A stretch of DNA of 61,864 nucleotides, filler included, from Circinaria calcarea (GCA_051942165.1; 8 parts of 8 records of this genome joined end to end with filler, not necessarily neighbours in it); one strand, 5' to 3'; shown: positions 7,667-51,045, counted from the first letter of the whole stretch. Notes: generated by a model not told the origin, from the letters alone. Translations and numbers: made by a program.

Positions 7667-7766
7667 NNNNNNNNNNNNNNNNNNNNNNNNNNNNNNNNNN
7701 NNNNNNNNNNTTAATTAATTAANNNNNNNNNNNNNNNNNNNNNNNNNNNNNNNNNNNNNNNNNNNN
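7667..7766. other. Artificial contig spacer N44-TTAATTAATTAA-N44; also at 15425-15524, 23175-23274, 30923-31022, 38666-38765, 46401-46500, 54136-54235
   Basis: Identical 100-bp spacer carrying stops in all six frames occurs seven times, and contig lengths descend. Confidence 0.98.
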
Positions 7767-30512: not shown

Positions 30513-31022
30513 GCTGGGATATCACAAGGGTTTCGCGGACTGTATTTAACGGGTCTTCGACTGCTTGAGGAAGCATAGATACCGAGCTGATTTGAGGTTT
30601 AGATTATGCGTCTTTCTACGTAGCGTTGCACCGATATTGTCCATGAATACGGATATATCCTAACGGAGGAAAAAAAGACATATGTGTACGTTGCTTGTAG
30701 TCTAGGGATAGCTGGGATTTTTGGCAGTAAGCGTCTGTATGGGTAGCATGTAACCGCTGCTGATTCCCAGATTCTCATTAAAGTCGGAACGACTCTTCGA
30801 AGTCGGGCGCCCAGCCATGGGTCATGTGAAATCTGCGCTCAGTGCGAAAACAATCAAGCCACAGGTTTCTGCAGGATTGCCATAGTAATGTGAGATAGTA
30901 CCGGCGCTCGAATGTAGAGGAANNNNNNNNNNNNNNNNNNNNNNNNNNNNNNNNNNNNNNNNNNNNTTAATTAATTAANNNNNNNNNNNNNNNNNNNNNN
31001 NNNNNNNNNNNNNNNNNNNNNN

Positions 31023-41145: not shown

Positions 41146-42624
41146 TCAGGTCGTCTTGGTTTCAGCCCAATCCACCCATCTCCGCACAACTTGGTCTACA
41201 TTCCTCACCCCTTTCCTACTTGCTTCAACCTCAAACCACTCTCGATGCTCTTTCCCACACCCCACGCAATCTCTTTTCACTCGCTTTTCCGCCAGCTCGA
41301 TGTGAATAAGACGCTCTACCCTGTGCGCGTACGGGACTTTCCTGGGATTGGGCGATGAGGTGGAAGGGGTAAAGGGAGATGCAGGGGCCAAACTTGGGGA
41401 AGAAGGAAAGTAAGGATAATAGCGGACTAGAGTGAGATTGTGGTTGCATTGTCGTGTCCACTCGTTCATACGACGCTGAACGTTTGATGCGCGGCCGATT
41501 TTGAGGAGGATGGTGGCTTTTCCGGAAGAGTTCTGACTCGGAATACTCGTGCTTGCTGGATAGTCCTGTTTCAGTTCACTCGTTCTTCGAACTCTGGGAT
41601 TGGACTTTGTAGACGGCAGCAAGAGAGATGATGCGAGATCTGGCTCTGGAGCTGCGGATGTATCCGGTGTGAGCCAGAATATATAGATCCAGCCGCCGTC
41701 TTGATCGAATGGCGAGGTGGGTTTTGCCAGTTCTGCAAGAAGCAATGATGTCGTTTGTGGGGATAGCGATTTAGGGATCAATGCAAGCAGGGACTGGGTT
41801 TGGGTTGAGAGATCTCGGGCGAGAGCAGGCCGGTGGGAATGGATGGTAGGGTTAAGGGTTGATAGAGGTTGCCGATGATTGATGTCATTTGAAGAATCCG
41901 CTTTCTTGGAGGCTGCAGCTCGAGGAGATACGGCTGATTGTAGTCCCATTGGAGGCGTAGACATAGAATGGTGCGATAGTCGAGTATTTTCAGCAACACT
42001 GGGCTGCCTAGGTGATTCATCGTAGTGTCGAATGCGAGGTGCTTGCGTATACTCTGGATCCGTGGATCGGACACAGCAGAAGATGGATAGCACGAAACTC
42101 AAATCCCCTCTAGGCTTTCGTCGGTACTGAGAGCTTGGAGGTAAACGATTTTCCGGTACTGACATCAACGGCCCCGAGATGTCCTGCCATTGCGGAGGTA
42201 ACGTCTCCTTCTTCACTGGCTTCCTTCTGTGTTTGGAGTTTCCTTGCTTCGACGTCTTATCATTATCTTCAACATTCAAGACGCCGAGGCGATCAACGAG
42301 CGTATCTATACTGGATCTTTCCTTTAGGCCGAGAACTCTGCCTCCTTTGTCTTTGGCTTCTCCATTGGCAAGAGGTCCAGCTTGTTCTTTGTGTTGCCAG
42401 CAGAAGAAGGCCGCTGCCGCCTCATGATCATCACTGGTATCAGGTAGTATGGCAATCACGCCGTATTTCGTACCCGGCGATGCAGTTGGTGAGTTACCAT
42501 TGGATGCAGCTAGAGATCTCCGACATGGCCGGCCACTTGACGTGATGCCCTTACATGTCGTTGATGGGTTTTTGGAGTCTGACCGAGGCAGAAGAGACTC
42601 GGGAGTATGAGGAATGAAAGGCAT
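41146..42624 (-). CDS. T5orf172 / MUG113 (DUF1766)-type GIY-YIG-like domain protein
   Basis: N-terminal CKGITSSGRPCRR..FCWQH; GWIYIF, LKIGRASNVQRRMNEWTRQC and HRVERLIHIEL..CxxCGKEHREWF. Confidence 0.85.
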   Translation of the reverse strand: MPFIPHTPESLLPRSDSKNPSTTCKGITSSGRPCRRSLAASNGNSPTASPGTKYGVIAILPDTSDDHEAAAAFFCWQHKEQAGPLANGEAKDKGGRVLGLKERSSIDTLVDRLGVLNVEDNDKTSKQGNSKHRRKPVKKETLPPQWQDISGPLMSVPENRLPPSSQYRRKPRGDLSFVLSIFCCVRSTDPEYTQAPRIRHYDESPRQPSVAENTRLSHHSMSTPPMGLQSAVSPRAAASKKADSSNDINHRQPLSTLNPTIHSHRPALARDLSTQTQSLLALIPKSLSPQTTSLLLAELAKPTSPFDQDGGWIYIFWLTPDTSAAPEPDLASSLLLPSTKSNPRVRRTSELKQDYPASTSIPSQNSSGKATILLKIGRASNVQRRMNEWTRQCNHNLTLVRYYPYFPSSPSLAPASPFTPSTSSPNPRKVPYAHRVERLIHIELAEKRVKRDCVGCGKEHREWFEVEASRKGVRNVDQVVRRWVDWAETKTT

Positions 42625-43419
42625 CTGAGATAGAAGTCTTCAAGCTAAGTATAACGGGCATAAGTTTAGTAGGGGATGAAGCAAGATAACGGTAAGGCAG
42701 ATGAGAACGAGACAGCTTGTTACAAGCGGAATTTAGGACTTAATCATACTATACATTCACCATCACCTCCAGCAGGATAGTATTTGAGTCAACGAGAGAT
42801 CATGTCTGTCGAGTGAATCATGGCAGATGCGCGGTCGATGGCCTGGGCAAGCGCGTAAATTGTGGCTGGGATGGCAGTGCTCCCATTGAGCCACCATCGA
42901 TGGGCATTGCCACTGCAGACCTCCATCATGAGTGATTAGTTGTTTGTATACATGTAAGGTTAGACCAGCCTGACTGTCCTTGATGGTTATATCGGCACTT
43001 CGCGAGCGCTGAGTCGGCTGGTTTCAATTAATACAACATCCTTTGATGAGCCCCCTTTTGACGGGCAGTCTATGGTTTATATACGAGTGCTGTATCAGAA
43101 TGAGAGCAAACTTGCCTGAGAGCGATTTCTCCATTACAGTCGATCGGTACAGAAGTAATTCGTGCTTTGCTCATTTTTCAACCCACGTACTCTGCTTCGA
43201 CCTACGCTACACTACGATTCTTGCCGGCCGACACGTTTCTAGTTGCAGCCGGGTTAGGTACAAGGGGTACGTCTATGAACCAGTGGATACAGAAAGCCAT
43301 CGCCTCCGTGCCATAAGGTGAGGATGGAACATGGCGGTTTCGGATCAATCAAAAGTAGAGAAACTATCCTCTGATCAGGAATTTGGCCATTTCGAGGGCT
43401 CGCGCTCTAACATGTCTAC

Positions 43420-45129
43420 TCACGAACCGGTCTTCTTGCCATCACAGAACTGTATCACATCCCATTTTCCACTCCATTCCCACTTCCGAGCCCCGCTATC
43501 TTCCCCTCCATCTTCTGTGGCTTTTAGTCTCTCGTCCTCACCTTCGGGAAGACCTACCACAACGTCGGCTTTGCACGTTCGGAGGGCCAATGTACGAACG
43601 CCAGAGTCAAGGCCCATCGGGCCAATGGCTGCGGTAAATGGGGTAGTAGGGTCCCACATGACCTATACGGCATCAGCTGTTGATATCGACAATGGTAAAC
43701 GATTTTACGCACGTCGCCAGTCAGTTTTCGATAATTCAAATCACCCTTGAAGATGACAAGTTCGCTCTCTTTCAAATCGTCAAAGAGTCTCGGCTCGGTT
43801 CTGGGTAACCGCCAATAGCTGCCGGCTTGGGTCCAGAAACGGTTGGGGCGGATGGTAAGCTGACCTTCTTGATGAAAACTACTCCACCGCTCAAAGAGGA
43901 AGGATAGTTCTTCGGCTTCCTTTGAGGATAGTGGTTGTGGGGTCTTACCAGCGTGCCTATCATCGTCTGAAGCACCGGTGTAGAAAGCTTGTGGGTCGGC
44001 AAGCGCATTGAACAGGGAAGCGAAGTCGCCTGGGAGGACGTCTGAAACGAACCATGGTATCGATTTCGGGTGGAGGACAACGTGAGTGGCGAGATTAGCC
44101 GATAGTAGGTAACCGGCCAGGATGAGGTCTACAAAGAGCTCAAAGCCGGCATTATCCAGTATAATGTCTACCCGTCGATCCTCCTTCCGCTCAGTTTTCT
44201 GCGCATTCTTGAGGGCTAAATATGCAGCGGGGAGGTCGTTGGCGATGATATTCTTCTCGGCAGCCTTTCTAGCGTCGGATCCTTGAAGTTTTTGAATATC
44301 TTCGTAGGTAAGAGATGTCAGGAGAGATAGATCCGTGGCATTACCCCAGAGGCAGATTTCACACATTTCCGTGAAAACGATACGTTCTGCTTGTTCCAAT
44401 TCCTCTGCGCTCTTGTTGATTGTAGTGCCGCTTCCCAGCTGGGATACAAGCTCCTTGTATTTGGCAGCTAGTTCTAGAACAGCTGGGCGGGAGGATTTGA
44501 AGGTCGACATCTTCTGTCTAGCGAATACATCATAACTATTCCAGTGTTTGGAGAGGGTAAAGGAGGTGCTCATGCGTCTGGCTTCTGTGAATTAGCTTGA
44601 TCTCACATTGTGGTTCCCCCAGGGTATACCGATAGAGATAGCATTCTGCATAGAGCCAGGGCACATTAAACCAAGTTGGCGATCCTAGAGCTTCGAGCTC
44701 CGTATTATAGCTCGCAACGTCAGGTTGCCCATCATCCGTCAATGATCTGTTGAAGTTAGTATATTGAGGTAAAGCATCGAGCTTGGGACTCACGTCAATT
44801 GGCGATCGTGCTGTAATTCATATTTGAGCTTCGCCAACACTTCGACAATGGCCTTGCCCTCGTTCCGCTTTTCTTCTTCGTTGCATGCCACAACAGCGCG
44901 ATGGACGTCATCAATGGCTCCGGTCTAAACTTGTTATGAGAACTGAAGTTACACCGTACATGGCTGGTCTGCCTCACCAGTATGACTGGCCATCGATCTC
45001 GTGCGGAGATGTAGGCAAAGGATGTTTGGTCGCCAGTCCTATACGGAGCTAGGTATTCCGGTCAATTGAAATCGTTCTATCGGGTAACACGCCTGGGCCA
45101 TACTCACGAACTTGTGGGTCCATCTCCAT
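43420..45129 (-). CDS. DUF89 / ARMT1-like damage-control phosphatase, multi-exon
   Basis: WFNVPWLYAECYLYR, CLWGNATDLSLL, LDNAGFELFVD, PWFVSDV, FKGDLNYRKL and LRTCKADVVVGL. Confidence 0.92.
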
Positions 45130-45286
45130 AGCTGGGGCTGGGAAAAGGGACAATTGGAGGCTTGGAGAAGTCCTTGATGGGGCGCTCAGTACACTATGGC
45201 AGTCCGATGTTTCCCCGTTTATTCGCACAAATCGAAAAAAGGCTTGATAAAAATATTCCCCAAAAAATTGCCAAAAGAAAAGCCCG

Positions 45287-45292
45287 AAAAAA
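45287..45292 (-). terminator. RNA polymerase III oligo-dT terminator (T6)
   Basis: TTTTTT on the minus strand one base after tRNA A73, with further T-runs downstream. Confidence 0.8.
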
Positions 45293-45293
45293 T

Positions 45294-45542
45294 TGGAGAT
45301 GCGGGGAATCGAACCCTTGGACTATTAGTGACTGATTCTGATGTAACAATGCACATTAACTTACCCGGACCCCATCCAAACATGCTCCTGAAAGAGGATT
45401 ATGCTACTATGCGGGGTATTAGCCTACGGCTCTTAGAATAAATTACCAATTTTACACACAGGATGTATTATACTAGGCTATGATTAGCGTAATGAATAAT
45501 ACAAAGATTGATTCAAAGTCTTACCCACTAAACCACATCCCC
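45294..45542 (-). tRNA. tRNA-Ala(AGC) split by three spliceosomal-type introns and one canonical tRNA intron
   Basis: Exons 45542-45525, 45472-45460, 45406-45402, 45378-45365 and 45315-45294 join to GGGGATGTGGTTTAGTGGTATAATACATCCTTAGCATGGATGGGGTCCGGGGTTCGATTCCCCGCATCTCCA (72 nt). Acceptor stem has G3:U70, anticodon stem CATCC/GGATG with anticodon AGC, T stem CGGGG/CCCCG. Confidence 0.93.
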
Positions 45543-47160
45543 AAGTAATGAGACTTATAATCTTATTTAAATGTATATTCATATTTAACTCAGTCAGATC
45601 GCCTCACCTCAAAATAAACACAAGCTAGCAAAAACACATCCTATTAATTTTATTCATTTTCCAAATTCCTCTTGATTCTAACCACTTTACTCCAATGAAC
45701 AGATCCCCATCCCCATCCAATCCGACCAACCCCGAAAAAACGTGGACGTTAATTCCATCCATCCTACCTGATTCTAATCTAATTATCCAGGTATCATCTC
45801 GGCGGACCCCCCCTCTCTCCGCTCGCCTAATATCCAGCACCTGCACAACCATTCAACTTTTAAACAAATCCCCGAAGTTACATTACAAAAAATGGGCTCT
45901 CGCGACCTTTTAGATTCTGCCCCGGGGGTTCATCCAGGAGTCCGGAAAACGGGCTGACTGACGGCAAAAACGAAGCTTTTTGTTTCAAATACAATTTTTC
46001 GTTACAAGGGTTGCAGATTTGGCGATTCAAGGTGTTTTGGGGGAGAATTATCAAACTATGACTACGACTACGAAAATAGAGATACCTCGAACTTCTCTCC
46101 AAATTTAGGAAGATAATTTTTTGGTGCTTCAAAATCTTAGATAACCGTATGCATTTATGACACTTTGGGCCCCTAGCGTACGCACACCCAAGCCGGAAGA
46201 AGCTTCCACTTTCGCTCAAAAAAACCCCGTGCAACTTCCCGCTACCGACCAAGCAACCCAGGTAGGCACCACCATCACAAACACCCTCCCCTTGGTCTAT
46301 CCTTCCTCGCCGTAATCCCCCATTCCTCAACGCTTCTCCCCTTCCCAGCTCATCCACTCGCCTGCGTACTCGCCACCACTCTCCCTCTCCTCCCTTCCTC
46401 NNNNNNNNNNNNNNNNNNNNNNNNNNNNNNNNNNNNNNNNNNNNTTAATTAATTAANNNNNNNNNNNNNNNNNNNNNNNNNNNNNNNNNNNNNNNNNNNN
46501 TTTTTTTCTAGGACCTGGATAATTGGGAGAATAAGCGGGTGAAGCGGTTAAAGGGGGAGCATGATGGGATACTCTGATGGGACCTCTTTCCGGGGGGGCA
46601 AAAGGGGATTGCGGGGCCTGTGGAGAATGACTACGGGCGAAAGCGAACAAGTACCGACAATGTGTGAGGATGAGGGAGAGGGAGAGGGGGAAATGATGAA
46701 GAGGACTTGGGGCTTGGGATAAGAGTGGCTACCCGGGGGCGATAGGAAAGGATTGGTCCAGTGACCGCGTCTAAGGGGAGGAAGGGGGGGATATTTGCTA
46801 CTTGCAAGGCGACATTGGTTGCTTTCTGCGGCTTATCACGAATGGGGTTGATTCCACAAGGGGGACTATGGGAGCTACCAGTGATGGGCAGTGGAGGAAG
46901 AAGAAGCGTATTTCGAGAAGACCATTCCTCGAATACCACAATAACCCATCGACGCTTCCACCACCCAAGTTCTGCTGACAAATAGTGTACACGGTTTAAA
47001 ATATATGCGCAAAATAACAATTGTCAACCAATCTGTGCTTCCACATGTTTCCGGTCCAGCGCCTTGCTCGAGAAACTCAATAAAACCCCTGTCCGAACGC
47101 TATACCTATCTGGGGAATTCCCACACAAGAACCATTACCGCCCCCTGCTCTTCGACCAGA

Positions 47161-50100
47161 TCAGTAAGCCCTCCCGTTTCTCGTCCTGCCGATGGTCTGG
47201 AAAGTCTGGTGCCCAAATGCAAGTGTATCAAACCGATCGATTCCCGCAGCGTTCACGTCTCCAGAAAACCCGGAGAGGTAGAAACCAAACACCACCACCA
47301 GATAAGTAAGCACGAGAATACTCCCCTTGAAGTAGTTGCTCTAGCATTCTTTGTATCAGTGTCTGAGTCTGGAGATGGAAAACAGATATGATTAGCTTAC
47401 CTTTCCTTCACCGTACATGTAACTGAGCAGAAATACGCAAAGAATGACAGTAACCTGTACATGTTAGCAAAGAGTTGACAAAAGTTGTAGCACTGGCCAT
47501 ACCATATCCCACTGAGGGAAGATCAGGCTGTTGAATTATTAGCTCCTTTCAGTAACACAGACTCTGGAGGCCTCACTTGAATGTATGATTCGAAAGGTCC
47601 TCAGCATTGACGTAAAGACCATAGACGGCGCTGAACAGCACTAGAGCAGGAATCTGAAGCAAGCAGACCTGCAAAGCATAGGCAGATCCAATCTCCATTG
47701 ATAGTGCAATGTTTCCGTTCATAGCGAAGGATATGGCGTTCTTTGTGTGACATCAGTATGAATCAACGAAGCAGACTTCCTTCTGACTCACCAAGAATTC
47801 AGTAGTATTCGGTACAAGAGCGAATAAAGTGATTCCCAGAAACTTCTCGTCGATGTCAACACTCTCCAGGACCACATCTACCGTATTGACCAGGATCTCT
47901 GCAATAATCGCGTACAGCACTGTAGCACCAAGCAGTATCACAGCGCTCTTAAGCCGGCTCCAGTTCGGTGCATCATGCCCTCCACCTTCCCCGTGAATTG
48001 TAACCTCCCCAGCAACCAAATCATCGTTTTCCTCATGCACTGTTCCTGCTCTAGATGGAGCTTTGTGATGAGGGTGATGGGGGTGATGAGCGATGGCTTG
48101 CGCAGATGCCTGAGTTTTTCTCGGTGCTCGGGTGGCATCCCGAGCTGCCACAGTGGCCGCTGTCGCTGCCATTTCTGCCACTTGGCGAACCAAATAATTG
48201 TTCTGTTCTTCAGAAAGAAAATCAATCTGCAGAGTTTTCACACTTGCATTATCGTTTGTAGTACCCTCGCCTCCGCTGCTCTTTGGTGGTACAATGTACG
48301 GTGAGACATGTTGAGGTTGTGGTTGGTGTATGTCACTGACAACCGAGACGTGTCGTGAATCTCCTGGGTTCGATGGCGCTAGTCCTACTTGTCTGAGTGA
48401 CTGCCCAAGGATCCGCTTATATAATTGCGTATCTCTGATAGAGGTATCTCTCATAGGATTACGACCCATAGAACCAGCGCTAACGTTATGATGCTTGTAA
48501 CCGGTAGGATGAGGTACATGAGGAAGATATGATATGCTGCCATTCGGTCCTGAGGCAGGCTGAGGTTTCTTCTCTTCAACTTCAGTGTTCCAAATCACTG
48601 CTGCATGCGTCCGGAGTGTGAACCAGAGACCGACCACATATGACAAGAATAGCATGACAGCAGCAAACCAACAGTACGGTCGGACAGCTTGAATGAAAAA
48701 TCGATCATAGAGGGCAGGCACTTGAGAGAAGTAACAGCGTCGGCAGGTCCTATCAGAGGGGTCCTCTGCTGTGCAAGCATGGCAGTAGAGCTCATGCTAA
48801 ATCCGTTAGTATAGTTGAGACTCCAAAGGTACACCAGCCTACTTACACTACCATATATTTGATAGAACAGGGTAGGCCCGAAAGCAGCGATCATGGCGAA
48901 GAGCAGCATCGTCGATGTCACACCTGCAGACTTTACATTGAACCTCTGCGTCTTGCGTTTGATAGCACCGAAGCACATGGAAAGACCTGGTAGGAAGAGG
49001 ATACCGGCAAATATGCTTCCTATGATGCTGCCTTCAACCAGTTGGCCCTTGCCTTGATTGAGGGCAACACAGTATAGGAAGACCTCGACTATGGTTGAAA
49101 AGAAAGCATTGATCGCTGCACCTAGCCCCATCGACGACTGCGCGGATATGGAAGCCACAGCTTGACCAATGAAATAGGCCAAGGGAATTATGGAGAAAAG
49201 CGCCAGGGCAAATACGAAACCGGGATGAACAAGCCAGATTTTAAGGCCGAGAGCGACATCGAGGATCCAGTAGTCGAATATGACGAAGAGCACCACTCCG
49301 ATAAGGTTGATGAGAAAGATATTAGTGCCATCTATGGTGTACTTCCAATACTTGAGACCGACGGCACGATAGGTACATAGGAGTATGGAAGACGAAGGAG
49401 ACGAAGGAGAAGAAGGTCCGCGTGAATAAGCAGCATCAGAGTGGAATGTTAGCGCTAGTGGATGTCGGCGGAGGTGGTAGAAGAGAATCAAAGTCACCTT
49501 GCCCATAGGGATCCAAAAGACCATAAACCAGCAGATGGCGGAGACCAGTAGCAGTAGAGGGGCGATAAGAAAGTAGAAGAAGATGAAGAATATGACACGG
49601 CCAAATGTCCATTGACCACGACCAAACAGTCGCCGTTTGCTCCTTGGGCCATCTTCCTCTCTTCTTCCACCAATCCTGGCGTGGCCAAGAAGGCTGTCAT
49701 TCTCACCAGCAGAATCTATACTATCCCTGCGACGTCCTACTAAGGTCCTCATTGTCGATGGACCGAAGAAAAGGCGTCCGTCTTCCAAATCGCCACTTTG
49801 CCACTGTTCGTATTCTGTAATGCTCCGACCTTCGCCTTCGTCTTCCTCTGCATAAGCTTCGTCTTGCTCTAACTTCACAAATTGACCAAACGGATAAAGA
49901 AGATAACCTGCGAGGCCCCAGAGAACATGACCGTATTCTGCGGCTCCAGGTGTGAAACCAAGTATGAGGCATGTACCAGCACCCACTGCCGCCACTATCG
50001 CTAGCCACCATCCGAATAGTAAAGTCCACAGAAGGTTGAAAGCCCACAGCCATCTGCTGACTCTACCGCCTGGTGAGGAATGAATATCGCCATCGGCTGT

Positions 50101-51045
50101 CTTCTCTACGGATCTATTTTTCTTATAGAGTGCAGGCTTCCAGATACGGATACCAAAGGGGTGTGTTTCGTTGATAGCGTCTTGACGATCCTTCAGGGTG
50201 AAGCTCTCAGCATCACTTAGATCATCGTCGTCATCGTCGTCGTTGTCGTCATCGCCATTGTCATCAGGCTGCGCATGGGGATGTATGGTACCTTCTTCAG
50301 ATGTATCTGAAGATTCTGCAGGTTCATTTGATGGATTAGGCGCAGCTTTTGGGGCCGACGCAGCTGCCGCCTCCTCTTCTTCGTCACCTTGTGAATCGAC
50401 GCGCGGAAGATTTGCAGGTTGCAAGGTCTGTCGCCTCCTTAGGGTTGACGCTTGCCTCCGCATTGATGGGCCAAATCCTGATGCTGCCTTGGCTACTGAT
50501 GACCTTCGCCTTGCAAAGTCTGATTCGTACTCTTCAGGATCATCGTCAACCGAAAAATCCTGGCCTTTGTGGGGGCCTTGATATCTCGAAGAACCTCTTC
50601 TAACCAAACTTGGCTTCTTGGCTTTCGCAGTGGGATTTGTAGACTCCGGCGGGAAAACTTGGCGGCGGATGGAGGAACTTGCGCTCTTTAACGTTGGACG
50701 AGCCTGTTCCTGTGTCGATGTCTGCGTTGGAGTGCGTTGTCCTTCATTGGTTGACTCTTGGGCGGTTTCGTAACTTTCACCAGAGTCTGCTTGGAGTCAG
50801 CATGGTTATAGCAGGAACCAAAGGGATTTATGGTCTTAGGGTCTCGCACCGTCGGTGTTGATACTCGTCGATGGAGTTGGAAGGCGGTTTCGCCGTACCG
50901 TCGATTCTGCGCCATGGGGATCCCACCCATCATCTTCCTGTGGTGCTGGTGGCAGACGGATGGATGGTGCTCGAGTATCAGTTGGAGAAATTGGAGTAGA
51001 CTCCGCACGCCTCGAAGGCTTTGACGAGTCCTTGTCAGGCGTCAT
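47161..51045 (-). CDS. VNX1: Vacuolar cation/H+ exchanger of the CAX family, Vnx1-like, multi-exon
   Basis: ETHPFGIRIWKPALYKK, YKYTIDG-like YWKYTIDGTN, alpha repeats GAAINAFFSTIVE / GSIIGSIFAG and FALVPNTTEFL. Ends GRAY* at 47161. Confidence 0.88.

Follow-up and report, generated by a model that had tools for sequence, protein, structure and literature searches.

Canonical introns of eukaryotic transfer RNA (tRNA) genes lie between positions 37 and 38 and are removed by the tRNA-splicing endonuclease (SEN/TSEN) and the ligase Trl1 (PMC10275265, PMC12530127). In those portions of the two sources that deal with splicing, spliceosomal and tRNA introns are treated as unrelated systems; PMC10275265 names the spliceosome once, as a contrast. 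Here we describe an interrupted tRNA-Ala(AGC) gene on the minus strand of a 61,864-nucleotide stretch of DNA from Circinaria calcarea (GCA_051942165.1; eight parts of the genome joined end to end with filler), which we call the window. The gene appears to carry introns of both kinds. On our reading, which we base on the anatomy of the DNA, a lichen-forming ascomycete has here a tRNA-Ala(AGC) gene that is both functional and spliceosome-dependent and whose introns are three of spliceosomal type and one of the canonical tRNA kind; we put the probability of this at roughly 0.6.

The closest described cases are spliceosomal introns in other non-coding RNA genes. A review of U6, in the part that treats such introns (PMC5855946), gives them for U6, U2, U5 and U1 small nuclear RNA (snRNA) genes and for ribosomal RNA (rRNA) genes only, and calls the determinants of intron insertion into non-coding RNAs unclear. 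Its fungal snRNA examples are U6 of Schizosaccharomyces pombe and other fungi, and U2, U5 and U1 of Rhodotorula hasegawae (Tani and Ohshima 1989, 1991; Takahashi et al. 1993, 1996; Canzler et al. 2016, all as cited in PMC5855946). Lichen-forming fungi and other ascomycetes also carry 'ectopic' spliceosomal introns in their ribosomal DNA (rDNA; Bhattacharya et al. 2000, cited in PMC8527467 and PMC5855946), and yeast removes one such intron of a lichen fungus from transcripts of RNA polymerase I (Pol I; PMC8527467). The word tRNA does not occur in PMC8527467. Full-text searches of the literature outside subscription papers returned no report of spliceosomal introns in tRNA genes, in agreement with the preliminary description of this locus, whose author knew of none.

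Results

Anatomy of the interrupted gene

The interrupted tRNA locus spans 249 nucleotides (nt; 45542–45294, minus strand, as are all of its parts below) and runs from a tRNA-Ala-like 5' end to the T arm, the acceptor 3' strand and the discriminator A. Four exons of 18, 13, 42 and 22 nt are separated by three inserts of 52, 53 and 49 nt. Exon 1 (18 nt, 45525–45542) holds tRNA positions 1–19, namely the acceptor 5' strand, U8, the D-stem 5' strand and the D loop up to G18 G19; whole within it lies an A-box-like TGGTTTAGTGG that matches the commonly quoted consensus at 10 of 11 positions. Insert 1 (52 nt, 45473–45524) falls between positions 19 and 20, reads GTAAGA..GCTAAT..CCTAG and has a GC content of 0.31. 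It is followed by a micro-exon, exon 2 (13 nt, 45460–45472), with positions 20–32: U20 A21, the D-stem 3' strand, A26, the anticodon-stem 5' strand and U32. Insert 2 (53 nt, 45407–45459) lies at 32/33 and reads GTGTGT..GCTAAT..CATAG (GC 0.40). Exon 3 (42 nt, 45365–45406) supplies U33, the anticodon AGC, A37, a 23-nt intron of the canonical kind and positions 38–51. At 51/52 stands insert 3 (49 nt, 45316–45364), which reads GTAAGT..ACTAAT..CCAAG, and thus has an AAG acceptor, at a GC content of 0.35. Exon 4 (22 nt, 45294–45315) completes the tRNA with positions 52–73: the T-stem 3' strand, the acceptor 3' strand with U70, and the discriminator A73. The whole B box GGTTCGATTCC, as judged by the usual consensus, is contained in exon 4, and CCA is not encoded at its end.

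When the exons were joined by these coordinates, the product was 95 nt long, and ARAGORN called it a tRNA-Ala(agc) of 72 bases whose anticodon loop is interrupted by a 23-nt intron. That intron (45379–45401) lies at 37/38. It can be shifted by one T without effect on the product: ARAGORN places it one base later, which is equivalent to the canonical site. In the minimum free energy (MFE) fold of the 95-mer, a helix and hairpin formed by the intron extend the anticodon stem. The preliminary description had proposed this same architecture, in which cutting at GT and AG and removing a 23-nt canonical intron leaves a 72-nt tRNA; its coordinates and motifs for the tRNA ends and for the three inserts were all present to the base.

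The joined tRNA is well formed in three of its stems, which had been claimed to be fully paired and proved to be so. The acceptor stem is paired at 7/7 positions, including G3:U70, and the anticodon and T stems at 5/5 each, for 17 pairs out of 17. Conserved nucleotides include U8, A14, G18 G19, A21, U33, A37 and G46, and, in the 3' half, G53, T54 T55 C56, A58, C61 and A73, together with a G15-C48 pair. The features of alanine identity were all found, namely a pair of G3 with T70, A as the discriminator and an AGC anticodon. The agreement of this anticodon with the G3:U70 identity pair, also noted in the preliminary description, supports the tRNA-Ala reading. Finally, the joined exons passed a strict type-I cloverleaf template, which requires stems paired at 7/7, at least 3/4, 5/5 and 5/5 positions and the presence of U8, A14, GG, U33, TTC and A58. 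Judged from this anatomy, the best explanation of the locus is a nuclear tRNA-Ala(AGC) gene that would contain four intervening sequences of two kinds, three inserts and one ordinary tRNA intron.

Splice signals of the inserts

We asked how closely the inserts resemble spliceosomal introns. The signals of U2-type introns (GT with G at +5, a CTRAY branch site near the 3' end, and AG), which the preliminary description had seen in each insert, were confirmed in 3/3: each begins with GTNNG, ends in AG and contains CTAAT 10–12 nt before its end. Two of the three acceptors are YAG and one is AAG. To set a background, we counted window segments of 49, 52 or 53 nt that began with GTNNG, carried CTAAY 6–25 nt from the end and ended in AG; there were 11 among 364,562, which is 3.0e-5 per insert. 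The probability that all three inserts would have these signals by chance is 2.8e-14, or ~3e-11 if every boundary tolerated by the template is counted as one trial (37, 10 and 3 of 169 variants per insert). We concluded that the splice signals in the three inserts are far beyond chance.

The inserts also resemble introns of a protein-coding gene adjacent to the tRNA (described below), in that they are 49–53 nt long and its five introns are 47–59 nt. These five introns, which were mapped with the annotated protein, formed our entire reference set for the genome's own mRNA introns. An ORF-based heuristic (ORF, open reading frame) offered 39 further candidates; these were visibly noisy and were not used. 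The GC content of the exons was 0.50, versus 0.31–0.40 in the inserts. The inserts are not copies of one another, and no copy of them was found elsewhere in the window; we rejected the idea that they are repeats or introner-like elements, as they show no mutual or window-wide likeness.

A different enzyme might in principle be responsible for cutting the inserts. Multiple tRNA introns at non-canonical positions reportedly occur in Cyanidioschyzon merolae, in nucleomorphs and in archaea (they are said to have been described by Soma et al. in 2013 and by others), and these ectopic introns are of the bulge-helix-bulge (BHB) type, which the tRNA-splicing endonuclease cuts. The inserts could likewise be endonuclease substrates, or could never be removed at all, so that their likeness to mRNA introns would be accidental. 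We searched each insert for a BHB, defined as a 4-bp central helix with at least two outer pairs and both junctions in bulges. None of the three inserts had one, versus 224 of 5000 random junction pairs; a 4-bp central helix is possible between the ends of insert 2, accompanied by just one outer pair, which does not make a full BHB. The rarity of the combined splice signals in the window and the match in length to mRNA introns argue further against this alternative, and we consider it very improbable. The ruler mechanism of the eukaryotic endonuclease is not known to cut at positions such as 19/20, 32/33 and 51/52.

One further feature of insert 2 was recorded. The 8-mer CCCCGCAT occurs both near its 3' end (45410–45417) and in the T-stem/acceptor 3' strand of exon 4 (45299–45306), each on the minus strand. 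The shared 8-mer might allow an alternative pairing of the precursor with the T-stem 5' strand. Its probability by chance is estimated at ~0.06, and we gave it no weight.

Detection by tRNA scanners

Raw DNA gave no sign of this gene to standard tools, as had been predicted. ARAGORN reported 0 tRNA genes on the raw sequence, both for the whole window and for the locus. Rfam gave no tRNA match at the gathering threshold, none over the locus at E values up to 10, and none over the whole window at E values up to 1. The sole related Rfam match at the locus was a 13-nt piece of a transfer-messenger RNA (tmRNA) 3' end, placed on the T arm (E 0.031).

We then scanned the window with splicing allowed. 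Up to three candidate introns were removed (GTNNG start, CTRAY 5–35 nt from the end, AG, each 35–120 nt long) and each product was submitted to ARAGORN. Matches arose at the tRNA-Ala locus only: the minus strand gave 38 in 1915 combinations, and the plus strand gave 0 in 2403. Control sequences gave no match in 25,701 combinations, of which 4407 came from reversed or complemented sequence and 21,294 from ten block shuffles. A version of the scan restricted to YAG acceptors missed the proposed solution because the acceptor of insert 3 is AAG.

Two sequence patterns were also run against other collections. In metagenomes, a reverse-complemented pattern of branch motif, AG and exon 4 gave 41 matches in 40 loci and 0 split tRNA-Ala genes. 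This pattern was too loose on the T stem. Twelve of these matches, in 11 loci, were ordinary tRNA-Ser or tRNA-Leu genes whose T stem happened to read xAGGG; the other 29 had no tRNA call and look like tmRNA-type 3' ends. A pattern of exon 1 followed by GTNNG had 0 matches in prokaryote genome contigs and 0 in viral contigs, neither of which collections includes fungal genomes.

Transcription signals

The locus has the features of a type 2 gene of RNA polymerase III (Pol III), which are internal A and B boxes and an oligo-T terminator; the box consensus was the one in general use. A T6 run two bases after A73 (45287–45292, minus strand) is a candidate terminator. Within the 249 nt of the gene itself, no run of T exceeds three. 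Both boxes are uninterrupted: insert 1 follows directly on the A box (19/20) and insert 3 directly precedes the B box (51/52). By a rough count, three random insertions would avoid both boxes ~37% of the time, and this placement is suggestive only. Three B-box-like motifs were found in the window, and only the one in exon 4 belongs to a tRNA. In the 80 nt upstream of the gene we read a TATA-like TTTAAATA (45564–45571, minus strand) at −29 to −22 from the tRNA 5' end, a candidate upstream element for Pol III or for RNA polymerase II (Pol II).

Beyond the T6 run, further runs (T4, T4, T6, T5, T6) are crowded into ~60 nt, and the whole series (45214–45293, minus strand) lies before the start of the adjacent protein-coding gene, which is ARMT1-like. 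These dense T runs could be stacked Pol III terminators or a pyrimidine-rich promoter tract of the neighbor.

The boxes, the T6 run and the TATA-like element would fit a Pol III unit, and co-transcription with the ARMT1-like gene would be compatible with them too. In the latter case the tRNA would be part of a Pol II transcript, for instance a spliced 5' leader of the ARMT1-like gene, to which the spliceosome would be recruited co-transcriptionally in the usual way before RNase P and RNase Z excised the tRNA. The arrangement allows for this, since the tRNA lies upstream of that gene on the same strand, and its 5' end is 413 nt before the ATG start codon, or 259 nt without the three inserts, which is a plausible length for a leader; the TATA-like element at −29 would suit either polymerase. 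A self-contained Pol III gene is nonetheless the better fit to whole A and B boxes followed by T6 two bases after the discriminator, and the T/C-rich sequence that separates the tRNA from the ATG resembles a promoter region of the neighbor itself. For these reasons we regard the Pol II route as quite unlikely.

Neighboring genes and host

The adjacent gene (43423–45129, minus strand, the same strand as the tRNA) encodes an ARMT1/DUF89-like damage-control phosphatase (Pfam PF01937, E 4.5e-68), and 164 nt separate the tRNA 3' end from the ATG of this gene downstream. Its protein is 100% identical to P0002 (482 amino acids, aa), which is named for a Circinaria calcarea metagenome-assembled genome (MAG). 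The next named relatives are from other Lecanoromycetes (Lambiella, Candelaria, Lasallia and Xylographa), at 79–83% identity. Mapping P0002 onto the window revealed five GT-AG introns of 59, 53, 47, 52 and 50 nt, all of which end in YAG, and their branch-like motifs, which resemble those of the tRNA inserts, include TACTAAC, GCTAAT and GCTGAT.

Because the protein's name marks the source as a MAG, we considered whether the locus could be an artefact of assembly, that is, a chimeric join or a mis-assembly within it. Such an event would not yield three splice-bounded inserts whose removal restores a perfect cloverleaf, and the flanking ARMT1-like gene is intact and collinear with its annotated protein. 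An artefact of this sort seems to us hardly credible.

Other features of the window were recorded for completeness. Downstream of the ARMT1-like gene lies a 497-aa ORF (41146–42639, minus strand) with a C-terminal T5orf172 / MUG113 domain (Pfam E 6.7e-23 and 1.3e-16). On the other side of the tRNA, a large membrane-protein gene (47753–50796, minus strand) has Na_Ca_ex domains and a YccF domain; its two long ORFs overlap at 48595–48796, where an intron may therefore lie. At 30746–30897 (minus strand), Rfam gave a weak match to the H/ACA small nucleolar RNA snR32, below the gathering threshold (29.4 bits versus 45, E 0.75). The window also contains 14 runs of 44 N, which form pairs (e.g., 7667–7710 with 7723–7766) spaced ~7.75 kb from one another and do not look like assembly gaps. 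The runs nearest the tRNA locus are 46401–46444 and 46457–46500, and none touches it.

Discussion

If the tRNA-Ala(AGC) gene is functional, its expression might proceed as follows. Pol III would transcribe a precursor of ~260 nt from the whole A and B boxes and stop at the T6 run. Through intron definition, and with CTAAT as branch sites, the spliceosome would remove the 49–53-nt GT-AG inserts, which lie at 19/20, 32/33 and 51/52. The resulting 95-nt pre-tRNA would fold, and SEN and Trl1 would take out the intron of 23 nt between positions 37 and 38. Maturation would end with the action of RNase P and RNase Z, the addition of CCA and the editing of A34 to I34. We infer all of these processing steps from what is known of the two splicing systems; the anatomy of the sequence is what we observed directly.

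Several of our observations weigh against this reading, and three of them had been passed over in the preliminary description, which otherwise was supported at the level of sequence by the splice signals, the insert lengths, the lack of a BHB and the scanners that miss the gene. These three are the weak D stem, in which 3/4 positions are paired (G-U, U-A, U-A, U:U); the AAG acceptor of insert 3, while 5/5 introns of the neighboring gene end in YAG; and a second AG (CATAG) in insert 1, 5 nt upstream of its acceptor, the use of which gives a product that ARAGORN also accepts as tRNA-Ala. Exon 2 is only 13 nt long, and the A and B boxes are ~210 bp apart. The absence of T4 from the gene is a weak signature, as 184 of 798 window segments (23%) of similar T content are also without T4. 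The locus comes from a MAG, and intact Ala(AGC) copies may exist elsewhere in the genome. Lastly, the cloverleaf of the unmodified 72-mer (−20.5 kcal/mol) is not its MFE fold (−25.7 kcal/mol), so that thermodynamics alone does not favor it. A cloverleaf that differs from the MFE fold is common for tRNAs.

The choice of splice sites belongs among these difficulties. ARAGORN at default stringency accepts 704 of 4526 combinations of up to three GT..AG deletions inside the locus, because any product that shares the strong acceptor stem and T arm scores well. The proposed solution was among 13 remaining at 110% stringency and among five at 111%, and it was lost at 112%, where four others stayed. 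The ARAGORN score alone does not single out the proposed solution. The last survivor, at 115%, was a 95-base 'tRNA-Arg', implausible in that its acceptor stem had 8 bp and its intron lay at 34/35. Under the strict cloverleaf template, 3/4526 combinations fit. In two of these the D loop has to be 11 nt long and the anticodon is one for Ile or Asn, at odds with G3:U70. The proposed solution is therefore nearly unique under the template, and it is the only one with an anticodon consistent with G3:U70.

Some of the same weaknesses would be expected of an idle or decaying copy. In that event the inserts would be real spliceosomal-type introns in a copy that yields no working tRNA, and uninterrupted Ala(AGC) genes elsewhere would supply the tRNA. 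The AT-rich D stem, the AAG acceptor, the competing AG of insert 1, the distance between the boxes and the possibility of intact copies all point in this direction. Neutral decay should, however, have damaged some of the stems, invariant positions or splice signals, and their undamaged state speaks against it: there are zero mismatches in the 17 acceptor, anticodon and T-stem pairs; no invariant position has been lost, nor has the identity pair, any part of the B box or the terminator; and donor, branch and acceptor signals are complete in 3/3 inserts. We consider an idle copy to be a real but minor possibility, and we continue to favor a functional gene that depends on the spliceosome. The host lineage counts in favor of this too, given the spliceosomal introns in lichen rDNA and the removal of one of them by yeast from Pol I transcripts.

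If this is true, it would break the textbook separation drawn in PMC12530127 and PMC10275265, by which Pol II transcripts have spliceosomal introns and tRNAs have endonuclease introns, and tRNA would join snRNA and rRNA among the known hosts of ectopic spliceosomal introns. The spliceosome would act on a Pol III transcript that is very short, highly structured and probably uncapped and has an internal exon of 13 nt. In such fungi, annotation of the tRNAscan and ARAGORN type would give too low a count of tRNA genes. A 72-nt gene with three spliceosomal introns, in a lineage known for rDNA introns, would also offer a compact natural system for the study of spliceosomal intron gain.

We would go further only tentatively. 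The spliceosome may be routine in tRNA biogenesis in lichen fungi, such that it takes four splicing events and two unrelated machineries to turn a Pol III transcript into an essential tRNA-Ala(AGC), with introns spreading into tRNA genes as they did into rDNA; we hold this to be a little short of an even chance. Spliceosomal introns in tRNA genes, by tying the supply of tRNA to the capacity of the spliceosome, may be part of the slow-growth, stress-tolerance strategy that has been proposed for rDNA introns.

How the gene compares with known systems may be summarized by the kind of intron concerned. Among canonical tRNA introns, its counterpart is the 23-nt intron alone; the other three inserts lie away from 37/38. 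With BHB-type ectopic introns it shares several non-canonical tRNA positions, including the D arm and T arm, and the property of being missed by standard scanners. BHB-type introns are short, flanked by a BHB and cut by the tRNA endonuclease, whereas the three inserts described here have no BHB and have GT, CTAAT and AG instead.

Fungal snRNA introns offer another comparison. Both are short GT-AG introns with a branch site in a small, structured non-coding RNA gene, and U6 is itself a Pol III transcript; fungal snRNA genes are also reported to have more than one intron each and insertions specific to a species. The tRNA-Ala gene differs in that its product is not a component of the spliceosome. 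Because a tRNA is not at the catalytic center of the spliceosome, the usual explanation of snRNA introns by reverse splicing is not directly applicable. It differs also in having an endonuclease-type intron, such that two splicing systems would work on one small RNA.

The rDNA introns of lichen fungi resemble the present case in their lichen mycobiont host, in the kind of intron, and in a gene that is not transcribed by Pol II. The differences are that the host RNA is a tRNA, presumably made by Pol III, rather than an rRNA made by Pol I, and that three introns are found within 72 nt of mature sequence, with exons of 13–42 nt. The inserts were probably gained by the same process as the spliceosomal introns in the rDNA of lichen fungi and in the snRNA genes of other fungi. 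A tRNA is a new class of host for a known phenomenon, the ectopic spliceosomal intron in a non-coding RNA gene, and three in 72 nt is an extreme example of it.

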